Of a DNA stretch of 47,255 nt, positions 5,725 to 32,805 are shown one piece after another. The notes beneath the pieces were generated by a model. It saw only the letters and a list, made by a program, of their open reading frames with translations, ran no database searches and had not been told where the DNA came from. This DNA comes from a virus, in the UHGV virus genome UHGV-1361018. One strand, 5' to 3'. Within the stretch, counting starts at the first letter, position 1; each line of letters starts with the position of its first letter. A program made the position numbers and the translations under genes.

Positions 5725-5919
5725 TCACTTAATCATCAATTTTGAAATATCAACATAACCAACACAAAATCTGTGCCAGTAATCATCAAGCACGTGGTAA
5801 TTAGAGCGAATCCATGCTTTGTTCATTCCACTCCAGAAAAACCATGTCGAATAACCATGCGGTCTGAAATGCCATGAACCTTCTGAGCGGCAAATTTCGC
5901 CTGATATTGTTCTCATTTT
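5725..5919 (-). CDS. hypothetical protein (~64 aa)
   Basis: Minus-strand ORF coupled to the 543-aa gene; internal Met start chosen to avoid an 88-nt overlap. Confidence 0.3.
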   Translation of the reverse strand, partial: KMRTISGEICRSEGSWHFRPHGYSTWFFWSGMNKAWIRSNYHVLDDYWHRFCVGYVDISKLMIK

Positions 5920-7544
5920 AAGTTCCTCATAAATCTCATTCTCTTCATTGCTGATGACAGGATATTCCTGACTGATGAGTTCATTCGCAAACCAGACCAT
6001 GAGCCGCCACCAGAAAGCCTGATATTGGATGGATTTTCAGGGTCCAACTCTATTGGTGAATGCCTGTTTTCAGATATCGCAATGATGACCTCGTAAGTAA
6101 ATTTATCCGGCGTAACCTGAATTGAGTTTGAATCGGCAGCTGAAATTATCTTACTGATTCTGTCGCGACAAAGTTTGTTTTTGACAACTGAAATATAAGG
6201 CTTTTCAGCGAAAGCCTTTGATTCAATGCATTTTTTAACCTTCATAACAATGTTGTCCCACTCAGTGTTTTCAAGGCCATCAAACTCTGCTTCTCCCTCC
6301 AGATAATCACGCAGGTCGTACATGCTGTTCATTACGGTTGCATACGCCCATTCAATATGGCATTCCTTTATCTGCGGAGTCATGCCATTGCGCGATGATA
6401 AATCAGCAAATGCACAAAGAGTCGCAAGCTCAATAACCATCTGAGCAGAGCGAGGGCCGACGCTACCAATTACACCGGGAATGTTGCTTGACTTGTCTAT
6501 GCGCCTGCGCAACATCTCATAGTATTTCGAAACGCCATCATTTGCATATTCCACATTAAAGAATCCACCTGGAATTCTTGGTTTCCATTCGTTTATTATT
6601 GTTTTATTTATTTCCATGTCAGGAGTATTCTTAAGTTCTGGCATGTGTTCATGACCTTTAATGAAAAGAGATCTCCCCATGCCGCCATCCTTTTCCCATC
6701 TCCTTACTGTTGCGATACCCTGCTCTGGGGTCACAGTTATGAACGGAATGAACCTTACGTTCTGTATTCCTTTCTCGTTAATGCACAGGTCATAACATTG
6801 CATGGCGTGATTTAATCTTCTTCCAATGTCATGGTTCATTTTTGCAAGCCGACGATAATCTATCGCGCCATCTGATTCACCGATGCGAGGTATCATCCAC
6901 CCCTGAGCCTGCGCGGCAGAGAGTATTAACTTCGGGTTTTGAGCACTAGCAAGCTTCTCCTGAAACAATGTAACAACAGGTGACTCAGGAAACCAGTCAC
7001 CACTAATGGACGTCCTGAACCATGAGGCAGTTTCACCAAGCGGAGAGCGCGTATCTGACCAAGCCTGAAGATGTTCAGGGCAGTCATCTGCGATATAAAG
7101 CAAGAAACCATCAGCCTCAATGAGACGCTCTTTAATTTGTCGCAATGATGTTACGGTGCTTTTTGATACGCGCGGAGTTATTCCAAGATTCTCTGAGTAA
7201 GCCTTAACAAAATCAGATGGAGCACCCTTACCTGCGCCAGAACGCCCAACAATAAATGTCCCCGTGGCACACTTGTTTTTTGCGCTTGGGCCAATTATGT
7301 ATCTGCCAGCCATCACCTGAGCAAGCGCGATAGCACCCGGCAATCTGTAAACCTCTCCCTCTTCGCGATTTTCGAAATGATTCTCTATCTCGCACATGAA
7401 TTCACCAAGAGAGCCTGGAGGGATTTTGTATCCTTCACGGAATTCTGGCACGTCAATTTCATCAAGTGGATTTCCAGAATCAGGCTTACCTGTTGGCTTC
7501 AGAGATTCCTTTAGTTCAATGATTTGCTTTGAATCAGTCATCAC
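5913..7544 (-). CDS. large hypothetical protein (543 aa), putative replication-associated/origin-proximal protein
   Basis: Long ORF with coupled neighbours (ATGA overlap with the 92-aa ORF). Lies between the primase and the iteron region. Contains GRSGAGKG, which is not a canonical P-loop. Function not recognisable from sequence. Confidence 0.5.
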   Translation of the reverse strand: MMTDSKQIIELKESLKPTGKPDSGNPLDEIDVPEFREGYKIPPGSLGEFMCEIENHFENREEGEVYRLPGAIALAQVMAGRYIIGPSAKNKCATGTFIVGRSGAGKGAPSDFVKAYSENLGITPRVSKSTVTSLRQIKERLIEADGFLLYIADDCPEHLQAWSDTRSPLGETASWFRTSISGDWFPESPVVTLFQEKLASAQNPKLILSAAQAQGWMIPRIGESDGAIDYRRLAKMNHDIGRRLNHAMQCYDLCINEKGIQNVRFIPFITVTPEQGIATVRRWEKDGGMGRSLFIKGHEHMPELKNTPDMEINKTIINEWKPRIPGGFFNVEYANDGVSKYYEMLRRRIDKSSNIPGVIGSVGPRSAQMVIELATLCAFADLSSRNGMTPQIKECHIEWAYATVMNSMYDLRDYLEGEAEFDGLENTEWDNIVMKVKKCIESKAFAEKPYISVVKNKLCRDRISKIISAADSNSIQVTPDKFTYEVIIAISENRHSPIELDPENPSNIRLSGGGSWSGLRMNSSVRNILSSAMKRMRFMRNLK

Positions 7545-8591: not shown

Positions 8592-8771
8592 ATGAAAGAA
8601 GAAAGCACGTACAGCATCGACCAGATGAAGTTATTCAGCGATATATGCATGGCATTGTCGCAGCAGGTTCCAAGCCTTCCTGCTGATATGCGCTCAAATG
8701 CAATCATTGATGCAGCAGACATGATTTGCGAGGCTTATGCGATGACTGAAGATGAATATAAGGCTTCATAA
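8592..8771 (+). CDS. hypothetical early protein (59 aa)
   Basis: ATG preceded by GGGTGAAGGG; tightly packed with neighbours. Confidence 0.4.
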   Translation: MKEESTYSIDQMKLFSDICMALSQQVPSLPADMRSNAIIDAADMICEAYAMTEDEYKAS

Positions 8772-13763: not shown

Positions 13764-13979
13764 CTATTTGGCGTATATATTAATCGCTTCCCTGATCTGT
13801 TCTTCATTATTAAATTTGCCAATATAAGTATATCCATCACACTTAATATGAATTAGCAGATAAACCTTTTTATTTATCAGGTGAGCAAAGAAGAACATAT
13901 CGTTATGATTAATTGTCATACTTCCGCTATCATGTCTCTCAATAATCATCTTTATCATCATCCTCAAGTAACTTATCAA
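13764..13979 (-). CDS. hypothetical protein (71 aa)
   Basis: Minus-strand ORF downstream of the PAPS-reductase-like gene. Confidence 0.35.
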   Translation of the reverse strand: MISYLRMMIKMIIERHDSGSMTINHNDMFFFAHLINKKVYLLIHIKCDGYTYIGKFNNEEQIREAINIYAK

Positions 13980-14799
13980 GAACCTTATCGGATGTATTAA
14001 ATAACGCCTCGCAGCTCTCGCTGCATGAACCAGTATCGTACTGGCGCATTGACGTCATTCGTGATGCCAGCTCATCCCTGCTTACATCGTTAAATAAAGC
14101 TATAACGTCGCCAAGACTTCTGTTTGAACGATACATTATCTTGTCTGATTTTTTATCTTCAGCCTGAATCATCTGCCAAAATTCAGCAGCAAGTTCCGGC
14201 TCATCCTTTGAAGCAAGCGCAACTTTCTGGAGGCTCTTCTTGATACAGAAAACGCAATTACCAAGATGCTCCTGAATGCCAAGGTCGAATTGTTGCATTG
14301 ACCACCAGTCAAGGATATCCTGCTTTTCAAAGTCACTGATGTCTGCAAGGTAATGAAAACCTTCACCTCGGTTCTTTAACCGGTTTGGTTCATCAGTCCT
14401 GACGCCAAGCCATCTCTCGTAATTTCCTTTCCCGTATTTTTCGTTGCAGTATTTTGTGAATGGGACTGTTTTCATGCGGTCAGTGCAGAACGCCCCACCA
14501 ACATATGGATGACCGTACTTGCGCAACATTCTACGCCATGGCTCAAGGTCTGGGCCAATCTCATCGACGGTCAACTGCTCATACGTACTTGCTTTGCGCA
14601 TTTCATGATTTGGCACCACACGAAGACATGTTATAGCGATACTGAAGTGCTTTGCGAAGTTGCGTATAAACTCATACGTTTTTGGGTGCTCTGCTCCAGT
14701 ATCCATAAAGATAACCTCCGCTTCTGGGTGTATCTTTAGCACCTCCAGCGCCATAAACGCTGAAGTTCTTCCGCCTGAAAAGCTAATGACTTGATTCAT
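13939..14799 (-). CDS. PAPS reductase-like (PP-loop ATP pyrophosphatase family) protein
   Basis: N-terminal PP-loop ISFSGGRTSAFMA (SGGxxS). 286 aa. Confidence 0.65.
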   Translation of the reverse strand: MNQVISFSGGRTSAFMALEVLKIHPEAEVIFMDTGAEHPKTYEFIRNFAKHFSIAITCLRVVPNHEMRKASTYEQLTVDEIGPDLEPWRRMLRKYGHPYVGGAFCTDRMKTVPFTKYCNEKYGKGNYERWLGVRTDEPNRLKNRGEGFHYLADISDFEKQDILDWWSMQQFDLGIQEHLGNCVFCIKKSLQKVALASKDEPELAAEFWQMIQAEDKKSDKIMYRSNRSLGDVIALFNDVSRDELASRMTSMRQYDTGSCSESCEALFNTSDKVLDKLLEDDDKDDY

Positions 14800-27684: not shown

Positions 27685-28755
27685 ATGGAAAAGATTATTT
27701 TTACCAAAGACTTGGTAGCCAACTCCGCAGTAGTGGCTGACCAGTGGAAACATCTCACCATCGACCGCAAGGTGTTCTGCAATGCAGAAGCTGAACTGGC
27801 GAAAACCTATGGCGTTAACGCCACCGCGCTGGTAACGAAAGATTACTGGCGCGACGTGGACAACGTCACCACCCGCGTTTTCCGTAACGAAGCTGGTCAG
27901 GACATGATGGCTGACCTGATGGGTATCGCGGCAAACATCAACATCGGTAAGACCGTGGCAATCAGCCGCATTGCTTCCGATGCTGGTAAAGTCGTCCGCA
28001 CCCTGTCTGGTCAGGAGCCGGAAGATTTGGATAAAACTCGCTACGATTACACTGGCGATGTGATTCCAATCTTCAAGACTGGCTACAGCCGCGAATGGCG
28101 CGAACTGCTGGGTATGCAGTCTGAAGGTTTTGATCCACTGCTGGACGATCAGGCTAACGTCACCTTCAACCTGCGTTCCGACATGGCGCAGTATCTGCTG
28201 ACTGGCGACCAGACTCTGAACGTGAACGGCGTTTACACTGGTTACGGCATCACCAACCACCCGAACACTGTTCAGGTTAACCTGAACGCCTCCGGCGGAC
28301 TGAATATCGACCTGCAAACCGCAACGCCTGACCAAATCGTGAAATTCTTCAATCAGGATTTCCAGGCTATTCTGGATGCGCAGAACGTATTTGAGCAGGT
28401 TACTCTATGGGTTTCCCCGGCAGTGCGCCGTAGCTTCATGCGTCCGTATTCTGATGCAGCAGGCTTTAAGGGCGGCACGGTTGAGCAGTACATCACGCAG
28501 TTCGGTAATGGTCGCATCGGCAAGATTGGCACCAACTTCCTGTTGACTGGCAACCATTTCGTTGGCTATGTTCGCAACGACATGTACATCCGTCCGCGTG
28601 TTGCTCAGCCTGTTTCCACCTATGCGGCAGCTCGCGCCAACCCGCATGATAACTTTAACTTCCTCGTATGGTCAGCTTTTGGTTTGCAAATTCGGCGCGA
28701 TTATTCAGGAAAATCAAAGGTTTTCAACGGGTATGGAACACAAACAGCGTTGTAA
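27685..28755 (+). CDS. major capsid protein
   Basis: 356-aa ORF coupled to upstream genes, with strong codon bias and followed by a strong terminator. Assigned by position and size. Confidence 0.65.
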   Translation: MEKIIFTKDLVANSAVVADQWKHLTIDRKVFCNAEAELAKTYGVNATALVTKDYWRDVDNVTTRVFRNEAGQDMMADLMGIAANINIGKTVAISRIASDAGKVVRTLSGQEPEDLDKTRYDYTGDVIPIFKTGYSREWRELLGMQSEGFDPLLDDQANVTFNLRSDMAQYLLTGDQTLNVNGVYTGYGITNHPNTVQVNLNASGGLNIDLQTATPDQIVKFFNQDFQAILDAQNVFEQVTLWVSPAVRRSFMRPYSDAAGFKGGTVEQYITQFGNGRIGKIGTNFLLTGNHFVGYVRNDMYIRPRVAQPVSTYAAARANPHDNFNFLVWSAFGLQIRRDYSGKSKVFNGYGTQTAL

Positions 28756-28769
28756 TTGATAAAGGGGGC

Positions 28770-28795
28770 GTTAGCCCCCTTCTTTATACCTTATC
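28770..28795. terminator. bidirectional terminator after MCP
   Basis: AAAGGGGGC-GTTA-GCCCCCTT followed by CTTTAT. Confidence 0.75.
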
Positions 28796-29568
28796 TCGCC
28801 ATAAACCATCCACTGAAGTATATAGCACCACTCCCATTCTGTAATATCATCCCTTAGCCATCGGCTATTCTTTTTGAAGTTGTACTCTGCTGGTTCAGCT
28901 TTAAGATTGTGCAAGCAGTTCACTAGCTCTGGATATACAAGTCCATTCTTGACAAACCAGTTCACAGGTAAAATGTGGTCAATGTGCCAATTACTACGGT
29001 CATCAAAGCTCATCCATGGCTCCATGGTTGATTCTATATGGTTAATAAATTCACTCTTTGAGTAACCAAGCACTTCATCAACACTTGAATCAGAAAGAAT
29101 GGCACCGATCTTGATGTCCATCCTTTCCAGCGTTTTCCTCAGTAATCTATGGTGTGGATTGTCTATCGCCCATTGTTTTACGTTTTGCAAGGCCTTTGCG
29201 TTACCATTTTTTGAGTAATACCATTTACGATAAATCTTCCTTTTCTTCTCCAGAAACACCTCACGCTTTGAGGGGTCAGACTTTACGCGCCTTATGTAGG
29301 CCTTATCTTTTTCTGATTTCTTTTTCCTGTTTTCAGGAATGGAGTAATATTTATCATATGATTTTTTTCTGCTAATGCGCTCCCTATCCTGGCCCTCGCT
29401 TGTTGCGCGCTTAGCTCTGGTGAATTCATACAAGCAATCCTTGCATCTTCCTCCGCCGGCAGTAAAAAAGGTAACGCACCCACACTTTGCGCATGGGAGT
29501 TCGGTGCAGACAAACTGCTTTAATCCCTGCTCTCTGGCTTTAATGGCTAGCTCTTTTCTTGTGGTCAT
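28771..29568 (-). CDS. HNH endonuclease (putative homing endonuclease) with N-terminal zinc finger
   Basis: WHIDHILPVNWF...NCLHNLKAEPAEYNFKKNSRW HNH motif; CAKCGC...CKDC. Start at ATG 29568 with RBS AAGGATTACATC. Confidence 0.55.
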   Translation of the reverse strand: MTTRKELAIKAREQGLKQFVCTELPCAKCGCVTFFTAGGGRCKDCLYEFTRAKRATSEGQDRERISRKKSYDKYYSIPENRKKKSEKDKAYIRRVKSDPSKREVFLEKKRKIYRKWYYSKNGNAKALQNVKQWAIDNPHHRLLRKTLERMDIKIGAILSDSSVDEVLGYSKSEFINHIESTMEPWMSFDDRSNWHIDHILPVNWFVKNGLVYPELVNCLHNLKAEPAEYNFKKNSRWLRDDITEWEWCYILQWMVYGEIRYKEGG

Positions 29569-29659
29569 GATGTAATCCTTGCTGGTTTGGTTTTGCCATC
29601 TTAGCACGGCCATATTTGATGTGTTATAATTAATCAATATCAAAATAGAGGTATTTATA

Positions 29660-29884
29660 ATGGCTAAATACGAAGTCATCGCACGCGGAATCTTTGTTAA
29701 GGAGAAAGGCAAGATTCGTGAATTGCAGCTTGGCGAGGTTATTACGGAACCTGCTGAGCATCTGATGTCAAAGCTGCGAGCAATGCCTGAGCTTCCAAAA
29801 TCATTTGAGGTTGCAACGCCAGCAAAAAAATATGGGGATGAAAAGACAAAACGTCGCCGTCGCTCAAGTAATGAAGATGAATAA
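29660..29884 (+). CDS. hypothetical basic protein (74 aa)
   Basis: RBS AGAGG; Lys/Arg-rich C-terminus; followed by a terminator. Confidence 0.4.
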   Translation: MAKYEVIARGIFVKEKGKIRELQLGEVITEPAEHLMSKLRAMPELPKSFEVATPAKKYGDEKTKRRRRSSNEDE

Positions 29885-29885
29885 A

Positions 29886-29910
29886 AAAGCCCCGTGAAGG
29901 GGCTTTGTTT
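29886..29910. terminator. bidirectional terminator
   Basis: AAAAAGCCCC-GTGA-AGGGGCTTTGTTTTAT. Confidence 0.8.
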
Positions 29911-30107
29911 TATCTATGCTTTATGTATTCATCAACAATATCAACAATATATCTATTGTCTATTAGCCATGCCAGCATATCTTCAGGCTTAACGTCACCG
30001 TCAGGCGTGCTTCCATATAATTTGCAGTCGTTATAGCATTCCATGAAGTTTTTAATATGCTGTGCTTTATTAATTGTTTTGCTTATATCTTCTTTAACGC
30101 CCATCAA
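29910..30107 (-). CDS. hypothetical protein (65 aa), last gene of the leftward accessory operon
   Basis: ATGA-coupled to the DnaN-like gene. Confidence 0.4.
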   Translation of the reverse strand: MMGVKEDISKTINKAQHIKNFMECYNDCKLYGSTPDGDVKPEDMLAWLIDNRYIVDIVDEYIKHR

Positions 30108-30646
30108 TCAATCCTCATCGGCATAACAACAATCTTCGCAGTCTCGCCAGATGGCGCGCTAAGGCAGCAAACTGCGGCATTTGTGTTTCCATTCAGTTCA
30201 AATCTGACACCACAGAATTTAGGGTTAAACAGCTTCGCCACTTTCTCAATATCAACAAGGTAGCCAGCATTGAACCCGATGCAATAAGCAGCTTTCGTTT
30301 CCTTTGGTATCACGCGATCAATATCAGGGAATCGACCATCAATCTCTTCGCAGATACCAGAGCCAACCATCTCGCCAGCTTCATCATGATACGTTGCAAT
30401 TTTCGACTTTGTATCAATGATGGCGTACTCATAACGTTTTGTTGGAGATTTGCCGATCTTGATAATCACATTTTCTGTCAGCTTATTGTCATGACTGTCG
30501 CCAATAAATGCGCGATAACCGTCAGTTGACGCAATGCGACCATCAGTCATGAAGCAGATGCCGTTCAGGTAGTAGCGCACATCATTTCGAGCCTGAAATA
30601 TTAATGCTGATTCAAGTAATAGTTTGCTGATTTTTAGTTTCATCAC
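30104..30646 (-). CDS. truncated DNA polymerase III beta sliding-clamp (DnaN)-like protein, 180 aa
   Basis: Motifs IDGRFPDIDRVIPKE, IGFNAGYLVDIEKV and KIVVMPMRI parallel E. coli DnaN DGRFPDYRRVLPK, IGFNVSYVLDVL and YVVMPMRL. N-terminal LLESALIFQARNDVRYYLNGICFMTDGRIASTDGYRAF resembles a DnaN domain start. About half the length of a bacterial beta clamp. Confidence 0.55.
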   Translation of the reverse strand: MMKLKISKLLLESALIFQARNDVRYYLNGICFMTDGRIASTDGYRAFIGDSHDNKLTENVIIKIGKSPTKRYEYAIIDTKSKIATYHDEAGEMVGSGICEEIDGRFPDIDRVIPKETKAAYCIGFNAGYLVDIEKVAKLFNPKFCGVRFELNGNTNAAVCCLSAPSGETAKIVVMPMRID

Positions 30647-30816
30647 TTCACCTTAATCATGTGCTGTTTTGCAACTTTCAGGCATTCTTCAAAAATGCCA
30701 CCCTTCTTTGCACTCTGGTTGCGCTTGTAATACTGAATCGCCGCATCAATTGCCCTCTGGTCGATGTCTGGCAGCTTGGAGCGAAGTTGTTTTTCGATGA
30801 ATTGTTCAGCGTTCAT
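30645..30816 (-). CDS. hypothetical protein (57 aa)
   Basis: ORF with a TGATGA stop overlapping the DnaN-like start. Below the 60-aa track cutoff. Confidence 0.3.
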
Positions 30817-30825
30817 TGTTCTCGC

Positions 30826-30903
30826 CTATTTGCAGTATGGGCACGTTGATTTAGTTCCGCTACCACCATGTCGTGGGCAACATATTTTCTCCATTGGCGT
30901 CAT
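30826..30903 (-). CDS. Cys4 micropeptide (25 aa, MTPMEKICCPRHGGSGTKSTCPYCK)
   Basis: ATG overlaps the ParB-like stop (TGATG); CC...C..C pattern. Very short, so speculative. Confidence 0.2.
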   Translation of the reverse strand: MTPMEKICCPRHGGSGTKSTCPYCK

Positions 30904-31712
30904 CACATCTTCTCCAGAATTGCCATGACCTCGTGAATGTCAGCAACAGGAATCTGGATAAACTCCTCATCCTCCTTCAACTCATGGCCAGCGGGAAGAA
31001 TCACATGGTCTGCTGGCTTCAATAACTCAATCAGGCGGTCCACTGGCTTAATCTTTTTCGACTTCAGTACCTTCGCTGTGACCTTGTCTTTGCCTTGAGC
31101 TTTGGCCTCTTCGACTGCCTCGTCGATAACCTTTACCGCATCGTCACCATGCTCACGCGTTACTGCTACGGCATTTGCATAGCTGATTTGTCCTGCAGTG
31201 ATGCGCGCTTTTACTTCGGCAGGAACATCACCCAGCGACAGGTGCATTTGCACGTCAGATACTGAACGACCTACCTTCTTGGCGATTTCTTCATTCGTCC
31301 AGCCAAAACCTTTCAGTCTCGTGTAAGCCTTTGCGCGTTCAAACGGGTCGAGCTGCTTACCCTGACTGGATGACACCATGAAGGCGATTTTATCCGCCTC
31401 GTCTCCAGTGAAATCCTTACATTCAATGCGAACGATTGGTGCGCCTCGTTCAATGGCACGCAATGCGCCGAGATAGCGATGCTGACCATCAAGGATGCGG
31501 ATTCCCTTCTCGTCCGGAATAACTGTTAATGCTGGTAATGGCTGACCTGATTCCCAGCACTGCGCGAAATATTCGACATGCTGCTCATCTGCTTCACGGA
31601 TGTTATATCCCGGCTCCAGGTAGATTTGCTCCACTGGCACGAGATAGGTTTTGTTAACAGCGATGCCGTTTCGCGTTTCTTTGTCTGAATATATTTTGCT
31701 TAGTGTTTTCAT
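30903..31712 (-). CDS. ParB N-terminal (ParB/Srx-fold, DGQHR motif) domain protein with HTH
   Basis: ILDGQHRYLGALRA; HTH WTNEEIAKKVGRSVSDVQMHLSL; 269 aa. Confidence 0.65.
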   Translation of the reverse strand: MKTLSKIYSDKETRNGIAVNKTYLVPVEQIYLEPGYNIREADEQHVEYFAQCWESGQPLPALTVIPDEKGIRILDGQHRYLGALRAIERGAPIVRIECKDFTGDEADKIAFMVSSSQGKQLDPFERAKAYTRLKGFGWTNEEIAKKVGRSVSDVQMHLSLGDVPAEVKARITAGQISYANAVAVTREHGDDAVKVIDEAVEEAKAQGKDKVTAKVLKSKKIKPVDRLIELLKPADHVILPAGHELKEDEEFIQIPVADIHEVMAILEKM

Positions 31713-31909
31713 TTAACTCTCGCCTCCATCATTCTTTCTGCGATAAGGTAAGCATGTTCAGCCTTCTCGCCATAACCCATATTTGGTGATGTAATTAACA
31801 GAGATTGCATTGCTTTTGCGGCAAAATAATCACGCAGCGTTGCATCAGAAGCCATTTCTTGGCGCTTAACGTCATAATCAATAAATTCATCTTTCATATC
31901 ATTCACCAC
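31709..31909 (-). CDS. hypothetical protein (66 aa)
   Basis: ATGA-coupled. Confidence 0.4.
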   Translation of the reverse strand: MVNDMKDEFIDYDVKRQEMASDATLRDYFAAKAMQSLLITSPNMGYGEKAEHAYLIAERMMEARVK

Positions 31910-32090
31910 CTTCTTCTAACAATTGCTCGTAATATGCGACGTACTCATTGGCAAGATGGTACAGGCGCTCAGCAGACTTGCGTTCTAAATTACTTAAGTC
32001 ATCAATAGACTCAATGTTGCCAATTGCATCAACACAATCATTGAAGTCTTGCTCCGTGTTACGAAATCTACAGTAGGACATGTTTCCCAT
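31899..32090 (-). CDS. hypothetical protein (63 aa)
   Basis: Overlap-coupled. Confidence 0.4.
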   Translation of the reverse strand: MGNMSYCRFRNTEQDFNDCVDAIGNIESIDDLSNLERKSAERLYHLANEYVAYYEQLLEEGGE

Positions 32091-32092
32091 GA

Positions 32093-32734
32093 TTATTCCT
32101 CATCACCAGAATTAGCAATATCGTAAAACTGACCGTATGTTATCCGCTTAAAGTTATCAGGTATCGTTACCTGTCCGTGACCTTCATCTTTTGTATTTGG
32201 CACTGCAAAAATCAGACAATCATCCTTTTGCGGATGTTTTCCGCCATAAGTAGACAGCATTGCAAAACCAAATCCTCGAGCAGATTGCTCACCAATGCCT
32301 GTGCGTGCGATGCCATAATGGTTAACAATGTAGTCCTTCCATTCTGGCAATAACTTCAATTTCTCGTTTGCCTCGCGCATCACTGCGTCCAGCTTTTTGT
32401 TGTACTCTCGCCCATCCTTTGTGTTTCCCTTACCGCGAGCAATAACTACTCGTTGACCATCCCAAAACTCTTCACGTTTTATTGTCACTTGGCACGGGAA
32501 TTCAAAATGATTGCTCCATACAAAACTCTCAAGTAAGCCACCGCCGACCACGCCCCAGCTACGTGTCGTAGTAAAAGCTATGGCGCCAACCTTTTTCATG
32601 GCATCGCCGAGAATTTCATTGCGGCGCTTTTGAATGTCATCATATGCGTTAATAACTTTCTTAACATCATCACCTTCAACCATGTAGTAATCATAATGTT
32701 TTGCATTGCTGCTCATTTTTATCACCTCTAACAT
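32093..32734 (-). CDS. hypothetical protein (213 aa), first gene of the leftward accessory operon
   Basis: RBS AGAGGTGAT. No motif recognised. Confidence 0.5.
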   Translation of the reverse strand: MLEVIKMSSNAKHYDYYMVEGDDVKKVINAYDDIQKRRNEILGDAMKKVGAIAFTTTRSWGVVGGGLLESFVWSNHFEFPCQVTIKREEFWDGQRVVIARGKGNTKDGREYNKKLDAVMREANEKLKLLPEWKDYIVNHYGIARTGIGEQSARGFGFAMLSTYGGKHPQKDDCLIFAVPNTKDEGHGQVTIPDNFKRITYGQFYDIANSGDEE

Positions 32735-32738
32735 TTAT

Positions 32739-32805
32739 TGTTGTTTCTACGTCACTAACTATAAACACCTCATCAATCTACGTCAACAGGAATATGCTAA
32801 AATCA
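32739..32805. promoter_or_regulatory. divergent promoter region
   Basis: Leftward: TTGACG, 17 nt, TATAGT (rc of 32755-32787) with the palindrome-type operator TGTTGTTTCTACGTCA 32739-32754 at about +1. Rightward: extended -10 TGCTAAAAT 32795-32803. Confidence 0.6.

Follow-up and report, generated by a model that had tools for sequence, protein, structure and literature searches.

Bacterial replication and repair have their hub in the beta sliding clamp (DnaN), whose peptide pocket is a target of antibiotics. The subject of this work is a half-size relative of DnaN encoded by a virus, UHGV virus genome UHGV-1361018, whose entire available stretch of 47,255 nucleotides (the window) was analysed. 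The gene lies on the minus strand, with its coding sequence at 30104..30643, and its product will be called the mini-clamp.

The closest described system is bacterial DnaN itself (E. coli; PDB 1MMI, 2POL). The mini-clamp shares with it 15 of the 18 residues of the pocket that accommodates clamp-binding motifs (CBMs), as well as the motifs DVRYYLNG, TDGHR, DGRFPD..RV, IGFN..Y and VVMPMR, but it is much shorter (179 vs 366 amino acids), has lost most of the DNA contacts and has a higher isoelectric point (pI). An engineered monomeric beta, known from the beta-delta complex (PDB 1JQJ/1JQL), resembles the mini-clamp in keeping the pocket in a form that cannot close into a ring. The mutant, however, retains all three domains, whereas the mini-clamp is natural and much smaller, and it is, unlike the mutant, also devoid of the domain III loop touched by delta. 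Among viral proteins, the herpesvirus factors UL42 (a monomer) and UL44 (a C-shaped dimer) display the clamp fold without a closed ring, bind the polymerase through the region equivalent to the pocket and belong to a basic family; they differ in that they are two-domain proteins of the PCNA type whose basic face has been shown to bind DNA, whereas DNA binding by the mini-clamp is only putative. E. coli also reportedly makes beta*, a UV-inducible internal product of dnaN that comprises approximately domains II and III and starts near DnaN residue 135. It is an N-terminally truncated clamp beginning at about the same point as the mini-clamp, the start of domain II, but it keeps the whole of domain III with one half of the interface, whereas the mini-clamp has lost half of domain III. 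Phage proteins such as Twort gp168 (PDB 7EVP) and Mu MuC also manipulate clamp biology, but they bind the host beta, whereas the mini-clamp imitates a part of it.

In the literature searched, no functional or structural study of short phage clamps was found, and phage genome papers accept the annotations of such proteins at face value (e.g. PMC9825357). The homology to DnaN is already known and is stated in many GenBank annotations. What appears to be new is that the pocket is kept and the ring-closing parts are lost, together with the implications of this combination.

Homology to DnaN and predicted fold

When the mini-clamp was compared with PDB sequences by phmmer, only beta clamps were found (best E 2.6e-12; E. 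coli DnaN, E 5e-11), and hhalign comparison of a 98-member family profile with E. coli DnaN yielded E values of 2.7e-22 and 6.4e-23. The AlphaFold2 (AF2) model, computed with the family alignment as input, is a compact monomer of 11 strands and only two long helices, predicted with high confidence (predicted local distance difference test score, pLDDT, 96.7; predicted template modelling score, pTM, 0.91), and comparison of folds revealed in it the beta-alpha-beta-beta-beta repeats of the clamp fold. The mini-clamp is a DnaN homologue with a beta-clamp fold. The three lines of analysis agree with the original prediction, made from the DNA letters, of a phage-encoded DnaN homologue of about half size, and the two checks suggested there, a profile search against DnaN and structure prediction of the protein alone, both came out in its favour, although the curated cut-offs were missed. 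The Pfam models DNA_pol3_beta_2 and DNA_pol3_beta_3 scored 17.2 and 13.8 bits, respectively (cut-off 27), TIGR00663 scored 34.8 bits (cut-off 137.65), and the Pfam model of the N-terminal domain, DNA_pol3_beta, did not match the mini-clamp. Because these cut-offs are missed, annotation pipelines disagree on the gene. The mini-clamp has neither the three domains in a chain of about 366 amino acids nor the head-to-tail dimer interface that characterize DnaN proper.

The family corresponds to PHROG 3007 (E 1.4e-61; mini-clamp residues 2-179 align with positions 1-186 of the 190 in the profile), which is labelled 'RusA-like Holliday junction resolvase'. Pharokka gives this label too, and it has spread into many RefSeq and GenBank phage records. 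That the protein is such a resolvase, or alternatively the decaying remnant of a captured dnaN, would fit the widely copied label, the shortness of the protein and its scores below the curated DnaN thresholds. In contrast, no match to the RusA Pfam model (PF05866) was detected in the mini-clamp at E<=10, the fold is that of a beta clamp, comparison with the orthologue of phage Bas79 indicates purifying selection (ratio of nonsynonymous to synonymous substitution rates, dN/dS, 0.14), and architecture and length are kept across 152 clusters (50% identity) and several genera. Both possibilities are refuted by the fold and the conservation data, and we consider them extremely improbable. The RusA label of PHROG 3007 is wrong, and the label 'sliding clamp' overstates what the architecture permits.

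The open reading frame (ORF) called mechanically at 30104..30646 (minus strand) is real; it starts with GTG and encodes the 180 amino acids stated originally. Translation is nevertheless likely to start at the ATG at 30643 rather than at the GTG at 30646. This ATG overlaps the TGA of a 57-amino-acid upstream ORF (ATGA) and is preceded by the Shine-Dalgarno sequence AAGGTG, and methionine occupies the aligned start position in 95 of the 96 family members that have a residue there. Taking the overlap, the Shine-Dalgarno sequence and the family methionine together, the product most likely consists of 179 amino acids, encoded, stop codon included, by 30104..30643.

Segments of DnaN retained and lost

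Two segments of DnaN were recognized in the mini-clamp by hhalign. Residues 8-116 (30299..30625, minus strand) are equivalent to domain II (E. coli 136-251; E 2.2e-20), and residues 119-179 (30110..30292, minus strand) correspond to E. coli 313-366, the half of domain III formed by its second beta-alpha-beta-beta-beta unit (E 4.9e-10). The family profile gave no match to domain I and reached an E value of only 0.0034 with the first half of domain III (251-312). A phmmer alignment pairing the third unit with this first half was rejected on the strength of these values (0.0034 vs 4.9e-10 for the second half). As judged from the alignments, domain I and the first half of domain III (252-312) are absent from the mini-clamp. 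The place of helix alpha2 of domain II (~197-208) is taken by the short loop GKSPTKRYEYAII (30416..30454, minus strand), which coincides with a gap in the hhalign alignment. In the AF2 model, analysed with DSSP, strands 60-64 and 74-78 are connected by a 9-residue loop with no helix between them, and Pro68 in this loop is conserved in 82 of the 98 family members; helix alpha2 is, by prediction, lost. The original estimate that roughly one and a half clamp domains are missing was right (domain I, half of domain III and, as predicted, alpha2). The DnaN-like hairpin noticed near the N-terminus is a real resemblance, but it matches the start of domain II (136-177) and not the N-terminus of DnaN.

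One loop of the mini-clamp, NPKFCGVR (residues 141-148, 30203-30226), resembles NEKFRGVR of DnaN (275-282), which belongs to the first half of domain III and which we take to be the loop contacted by delta. The unit bearing it matches, as a whole, the second half, and the loop could be ancestral, convergent or mosaic.

Lists of interface and pocket residues were taken from a 2024 review (PMC11139829). According to this source, the head-to-tail interface of beta involves I78, F106, K74, R96 and R103 on the domain I side and, from the first half of domain III, I272, L273, E298, E300 and E304. All 10 of the listed residues fall in DnaN 1-135 or 252-312, segments without a counterpart in the mini-clamp, which by this alignment has lost the ring-closing elements of beta. 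The original proposal had placed the dimer interface in the retained C-terminal part; this could thus not be upheld, and because all interface residues are absent, there is no sequence basis for the capping of the host interface that had been envisaged as a way of poisoning host beta. Among the DNA contacts of the loaded clamp (Q15, G23, R24, R73, R80 and Q149), only Q149 has a counterpart.

These losses bear on the possibility that the mini-clamp acts as a processivity clamp in a genuine ring of new stoichiometry (e.g. a six-domain ring of four 1.5-domain subunits) or in a ring mixed with host beta. Clamp rings consist of 12 beta-alpha-beta-beta-beta units, and we infer that four subunits of three units would fit this number. 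Skaliter, Paz-Elizur and Livneh reportedly found in 1996 that beta*, the C-terminal two-thirds of DnaN, acts as a clamp in another oligomeric state. However, the mini-clamp has neither half of the known head-to-tail interface, and a ring of it would require two new symmetric interfaces. Moreover, AF2 predicts just two channel-lining helices where three would be expected, the model is a very confident compact monomer, and no fused or tandem mini-clamps were present among the best 150 of 1591 representatives (see below). We therefore regard a ring as quite improbable. Equally poor are the chances of its more elaborate variants, in which a D2 tetramer, a crescent of complementing half-domains or a hybrid with host beta would serve as a phage sliding platform with four CBM pockets.

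Conservation of the CBM pocket

The CBM pocket of beta is composed of subsite I (R152, L155, T172, G174, H175, R176, L177, P242, R246, V247, V360 and M362) and subsite II (H175, N320, Y323, V344, M362, P363, M364 and R365) (PMC11139829). All 18 distinct residues map to segments retained in the mini-clamp and 15 are identical to those of E. coli beta, the exceptions being H175 (Y44), L177 (A46) and V344 (T155). In the alignment of 98 diverse members, pocket residues make up nine of the 15 columns of lowest entropy (hypergeometric p 6e-7), and the mean entropy is 1.22 bits for the pocket vs 2.66 bits for the rest (Mann-Whitney p 7e-7). By these measures the hydrophobic pocket is kept near-complete and carries the strongest conservation of the family; the retention of the protein-binding cleft had been correctly foreseen.

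Five motifs, assigned by motif match and all encoded on the minus strand, contribute pocket residues. The first, DVRYYLNG (residues 22-29, DnaN 150-157; 30560..30583), contributes the equivalents of R152 and L155. Here R24 is conserved in 94, L27 in 91 and Y26 in 95 of the 98 members, and the other near-invariant positions of the family, D22, Y26 and G29, are all located in this loop. STDGYR (residues 40-45, DnaN 171-176; 30512..30529) supplies those of T172, G174, H175 and R176. P242, R246 and V247 have their counterparts in the connector of domains II and III, DGRFPDIDRVIPK (residues 103-115, DnaN 238-250; 30302..30340), whose P107 is conserved in 97/98 members, and N320 and Y323 in IGFNAGY (residues 123-129, DnaN 317-323; 30260..30280), a motif that extends as IGFNAGY..D to residue 132. 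The last motif, VVMPMR (residues 173-178, DnaN 360-365; 30113..30130), provides V360, M362, P363, M364 and R365, with M175 conserved in 95 and P176 in 93 of the 98 members. The three signature stretches on which the original prediction had been built, namely the connector motif, IGFNAGY..D and VVMPMR, are all present in the ORF in the order claimed.

A pocket conserved in this way could have been repurposed for a phage-specific ligand or process, the ligand being a phage protein or single-stranded DNA and the process, for example, transcription control. Clamps serve late transcription in phages (Mu MuC, PMC12867686; T4 gp45), and the beta pocket can bind single-stranded DNA too (figure legend, PMC11139829). 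A candidate ligand is encoded in the window by a 59-amino-acid accessory ORF (8592..8771, plus strand), whose product begins with MKEESTYSIDQMKLF.., a good match to the CBM consensus (QMKLF); the motif is QMALF in gp36 of phage sortregn and QIALV in gp42 of N15. From this resemblance, the 59-amino-acid protein may be a ligand of the clamp or of the mini-clamp. It was, however, found in only 13 phage records vs 285 with the mini-clamp, and no consistently co-occurring phage gene was found in annotated phage neighbourhoods. Furthermore, the pocket is near-identical to that of host beta, as expected if its ligands are the host's own motifs. On balance we hold repurposing to be unlikely.

A scan for CBMs of every ORF in the window, and of ORF termini in related loci, gave a number of matches consistent with chance, and no motif was found in the helicase, primase, single-stranded-DNA-binding protein (SSB) or exonuclease, or in Pol I of phage SE1. 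Two other candidates were rejected: QMHLSL of the ParB-like protein lies inside the helix-turn-helix domain, and QMKLF of Bas79 lies upstream of the annotated start. The 59-amino-acid ORF was left as the only plausible CBM protein of the scan.

Proposed role of the mini-clamp

Ring-closing parts have been lost and the pocket has been kept, so the mini-clamp would be expected to capture host proteins rather than to perform a clamp function. In our reading, the mini-clamp is a ring-incompetent beta derivative reduced to a CBM-pocket module, which is made up of domain II and the latter half of domain III. We give a probability of roughly 0.4 to this free module binding clamp clients. In the proposed mechanism the mini-clamp would act off the ring, its free pocket binding the Q-L-x-L-F type motifs of host clamp clients, for which it would compete with host beta. 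Candidate clients are the clamp-loader subunit delta, Pol III alpha and epsilon, Hda, Pol I, II, IV and V, MutS and MutL, and ligase. Made from an operon of the takeover type, the mini-clamp could divert or titrate clamp-dependent replication and repair factors of the host during infection.

A precedent is provided by the engineered monomeric beta (I272A/L273A), which bound delta about 50-fold more tightly than did the dimer and was unable to tether Pol III for processive synthesis (PMC11139829). Together with the kept pocket and the lost ring-closing parts, this precedent leads us to favour competitive capture of host clients, as a decoy or an adaptor. It is plausible that clamp partners are retargeted or sequestered by way of the cleft; the decoy outcome specifically, in which clients are captured in competition with beta, is put forward as a tentative possibility. 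The occurrence of the mini-clamp both in the window, where no polymerase was recognized, and in the Guernseyvirinae phage SE1, which has its own Pol I as well as a mini-clamp, fits a host-directed role. The low dN/dS and the conserved length speak for a functional gene, and the self-contained operon with its ParB-like and small genes, to which relatives add a DNA methyltransferase or anti-restriction gene beside the mini-clamp, also counts in favour of this reading.

Several observations weigh against this reading. Sequestering delta or alpha would be harmful to a phage that relies on host Pol III if dosage or timing were not tuned. The pocket is the best-conserved part of DnaN too, and for this reason the retrieval of homologues by sequence is somewhat biased towards members with a kept pocket. 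In the window protein, the pocket-bridging His175 is replaced by Tyr44, which is rare within the family (histidine in 113/117 close relatives and in 89/98 diverse members); Tyr44 may alter the ligand preference of the pocket. No constant partner gene emerged across genera from the neighbourhoods in annotated phage records. Finally, a pure decoy would not account for the high median pI of the family, which points to the binding of nucleic acids.

The last point leads to the main rival reading, that of a loader-independent, non-ring tether of the UL42 type. Basic surfaces of the mini-clamp would contact phage DNA directly and the pocket would hold a CBM-bearing polymerase, either one of the host (Pol III or Pol I) or, where present, the phage Pol A. 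The mini-clamp would then be a recruitment or processivity factor for which no clamp loader would be needed. The family has a median pI of 8.3, with 57 of 98 members above 8; the pI of E. coli DnaN is 5.25, and that of the DnaN segments equivalent to the mini-clamp is 6.1. In viral clamp homologues without clamp loaders an elevated pI has been linked to direct DNA binding (Kazlauskas and Venclovas 2011, PMC3201878). Lysines are conserved at positions 20, 135, 138 and 143, and Lys20 is in the loop equivalent to 148-152, adjoining Gln149, a DNA contact in beta. UL42 and UL44 are precedents of clamp folds that work without a ring, in some phages the gene is in the replication module beside helicase, primase or nuclease genes, and no polymerase could be recognized in the window phage, which does encode a primase, helicases and an SSB. 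On the other hand, the window protein is near neutral (pI 7.55, net charge +0.6), nearly all known DNA contacts of beta are in the absent domain I, and the AF2 model is short of one channel-lining helix. The failure of monomeric beta to tether Pol III processively also speaks against a tether, as does the scan for CBMs, in which none was found in SE1 Pol I or in the replication proteins of the window. We consider such a tether possible but doubtful.

If the pocket-module reading is true, viruses would have a new way to interfere with or exploit the clamp hub, by mimicking its docking site and not by binding to it, and a minimal scaffold of 20 kDa would be available for studying pocket ligands, or screening for them, without the ring. 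Clamp specialists would find this surprising; the mechanism is one that we infer. Several member phages can be obtained from public collections (BASEL Bas77-81), which makes a direct test of the hypothesis feasible. At the level of annotation, two systematic labels would be corrected, 'sliding clamp / DNA pol III beta' and 'RusA-like resolvase'.

Distribution of the family and its annotation

Homologues of the mini-clamp were found in 285 records of the phage collection, in 279 of which at least 80% of the query was covered. The hosts of these phages include Salmonella, Escherichia, Klebsiella, Vibrio, Acinetobacter, Proteus and Burkholderia. Searching a library of representatives at 50% identity gave 1591 matches at E<=1e-3, of which 152 reached E<=1e-10. 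Just one of the best 150 of the 1591 had the full length of DnaN (373 amino acids), and the full-length members of the family measured about 170-215 amino acids. Lengths ranged from 169 to 203 amino acids across the 98 diverse members, and in BFVD many viral proteins of 178-209 amino acids matched the mini-clamp model with template modelling (TM) scores of 0.75-0.89. Besides the RusA label, the GenBank records carry the labels 'DNA polymerase III beta subunit' and 'sliding clamp' (Skatevirus, Dhillonvirus, Guernseyvirinae, Gorganvirus, Obolenskvirus and Vibrio phages).

The position of the gene varies. In Dhillonvirus EP23 and Guernseyvirinae SE1 it is found on the opposite strand within the head module, alone or with one neighbour, and in Gorganvirus (PM-CJR) it belongs to a small opposite-strand cluster adjoining the tail genes. 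The myovirus Obolenskvirus has it on the same strand, between head and tail genes, and phage ST22 and Hungariovirus have it in the replication module near genes for helicase, nuclease, primase, dUTPase or Dam. In relatives, a DNA methyltransferase or anti-restriction gene adjoins the mini-clamp gene. Its recurrent opposite-strand siting in unrelated siphovirus genera is moron-like. The mini-clamp is widespread in tailed phages of Gram-negative hosts, with or without a DNA polymerase of their own; its use as a marker of polymerase-less phages was rejected because of SE1.

Operon and genome setting

The window represents approximately the entire genome, of about 47 kb, of a siphovirus of the Skatevirus group. 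Its relatives, E. coli, Salmonella and Klebsiella phages such as Bas77-81, Akira, KFS-SE2 and IME207, are about 90% identical over much of the queried region. The mini-clamp gene is a member of a minus-strand cluster between the major capsid gene (27685..28755, plus strand) and the tail genes, which bears out the accessory operon of the original prediction. Seven genes are arranged from 32734 down to 29910. The three promoter-proximal ones (31709..32734, minus strand) encode proteins of 213 (phrog_2260), 63 (phrog_8760) and 66 amino acids. They are followed by the genes for the ParB-like protein of 269 amino acids (30903..31712, minus strand; HTH_ParB/KorB, phrog_1033) and for the 57-amino-acid protein (30643..30816, minus strand; phrog_4439). 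The overlap of the latter's TGA with the ATG of the mini-clamp suggests that the two are translationally coupled. The mini-clamp gene comes next, and the last gene of the operon encodes 64 amino acids (29910..30104, minus strand; weak Ral-like match, phrog_1055, E 8e-4), its ATG sharing one base with the TGA of the mini-clamp. No operon gene matched a defence system in PADLOC.

A candidate sigma-70-like promoter, TTGACG-17-TATAGT (32758..32786, minus strand), is located 5' of the first operon gene; it matches the consensus at 10 of 12 positions, and the number of promoters predicted in the operon region was not above that of the shuffled control. Directly after the last gene there is a bidirectional intrinsic-terminator hairpin (29886..29906, both strands) with a perfect GC-rich stem of 8 bp and T-runs on both strands, which separates the minus-strand operon from a plus-strand ORF of 74 amino acids (29660-29884). 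An HNH/EndoVII-like ORF (28771-29712, minus strand; phrog_1035) and the Ral-like 64-amino-acid ORF flank the terminator, and neither is present in Bas79. That phage in turn carries a DNA methyltransferase gene between the 57-amino-acid gene and the ParB gene that is absent from the window genome. These differences in gene content mark the operon as a hotspot of gene exchange.

The replication genes of the window encode a primase, helicases, an SSB, a RecE-like exonuclease and a VRR-NUC protein. No DNA polymerase domain was detected in any window ORF long enough to be a polymerase, and no clamp loader was recognized among the window ORFs scanned. An ORF of 543 amino acids in the replication region (5913..7544, minus strand) had no Pfam or PDB sequence match and a weak match only to the PHROG category 'DNA primase'; among the window ORFs without assignment, it alone has the size to conceal an unusual polymerase or helicase. 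A gene resembling phosphoadenosine phosphosulfate (PAPS) reductase was found at 13939-14799 (minus strand; phrog_33262, E 5e-102), where it separates the terminase and portal genes and runs opposite to them.

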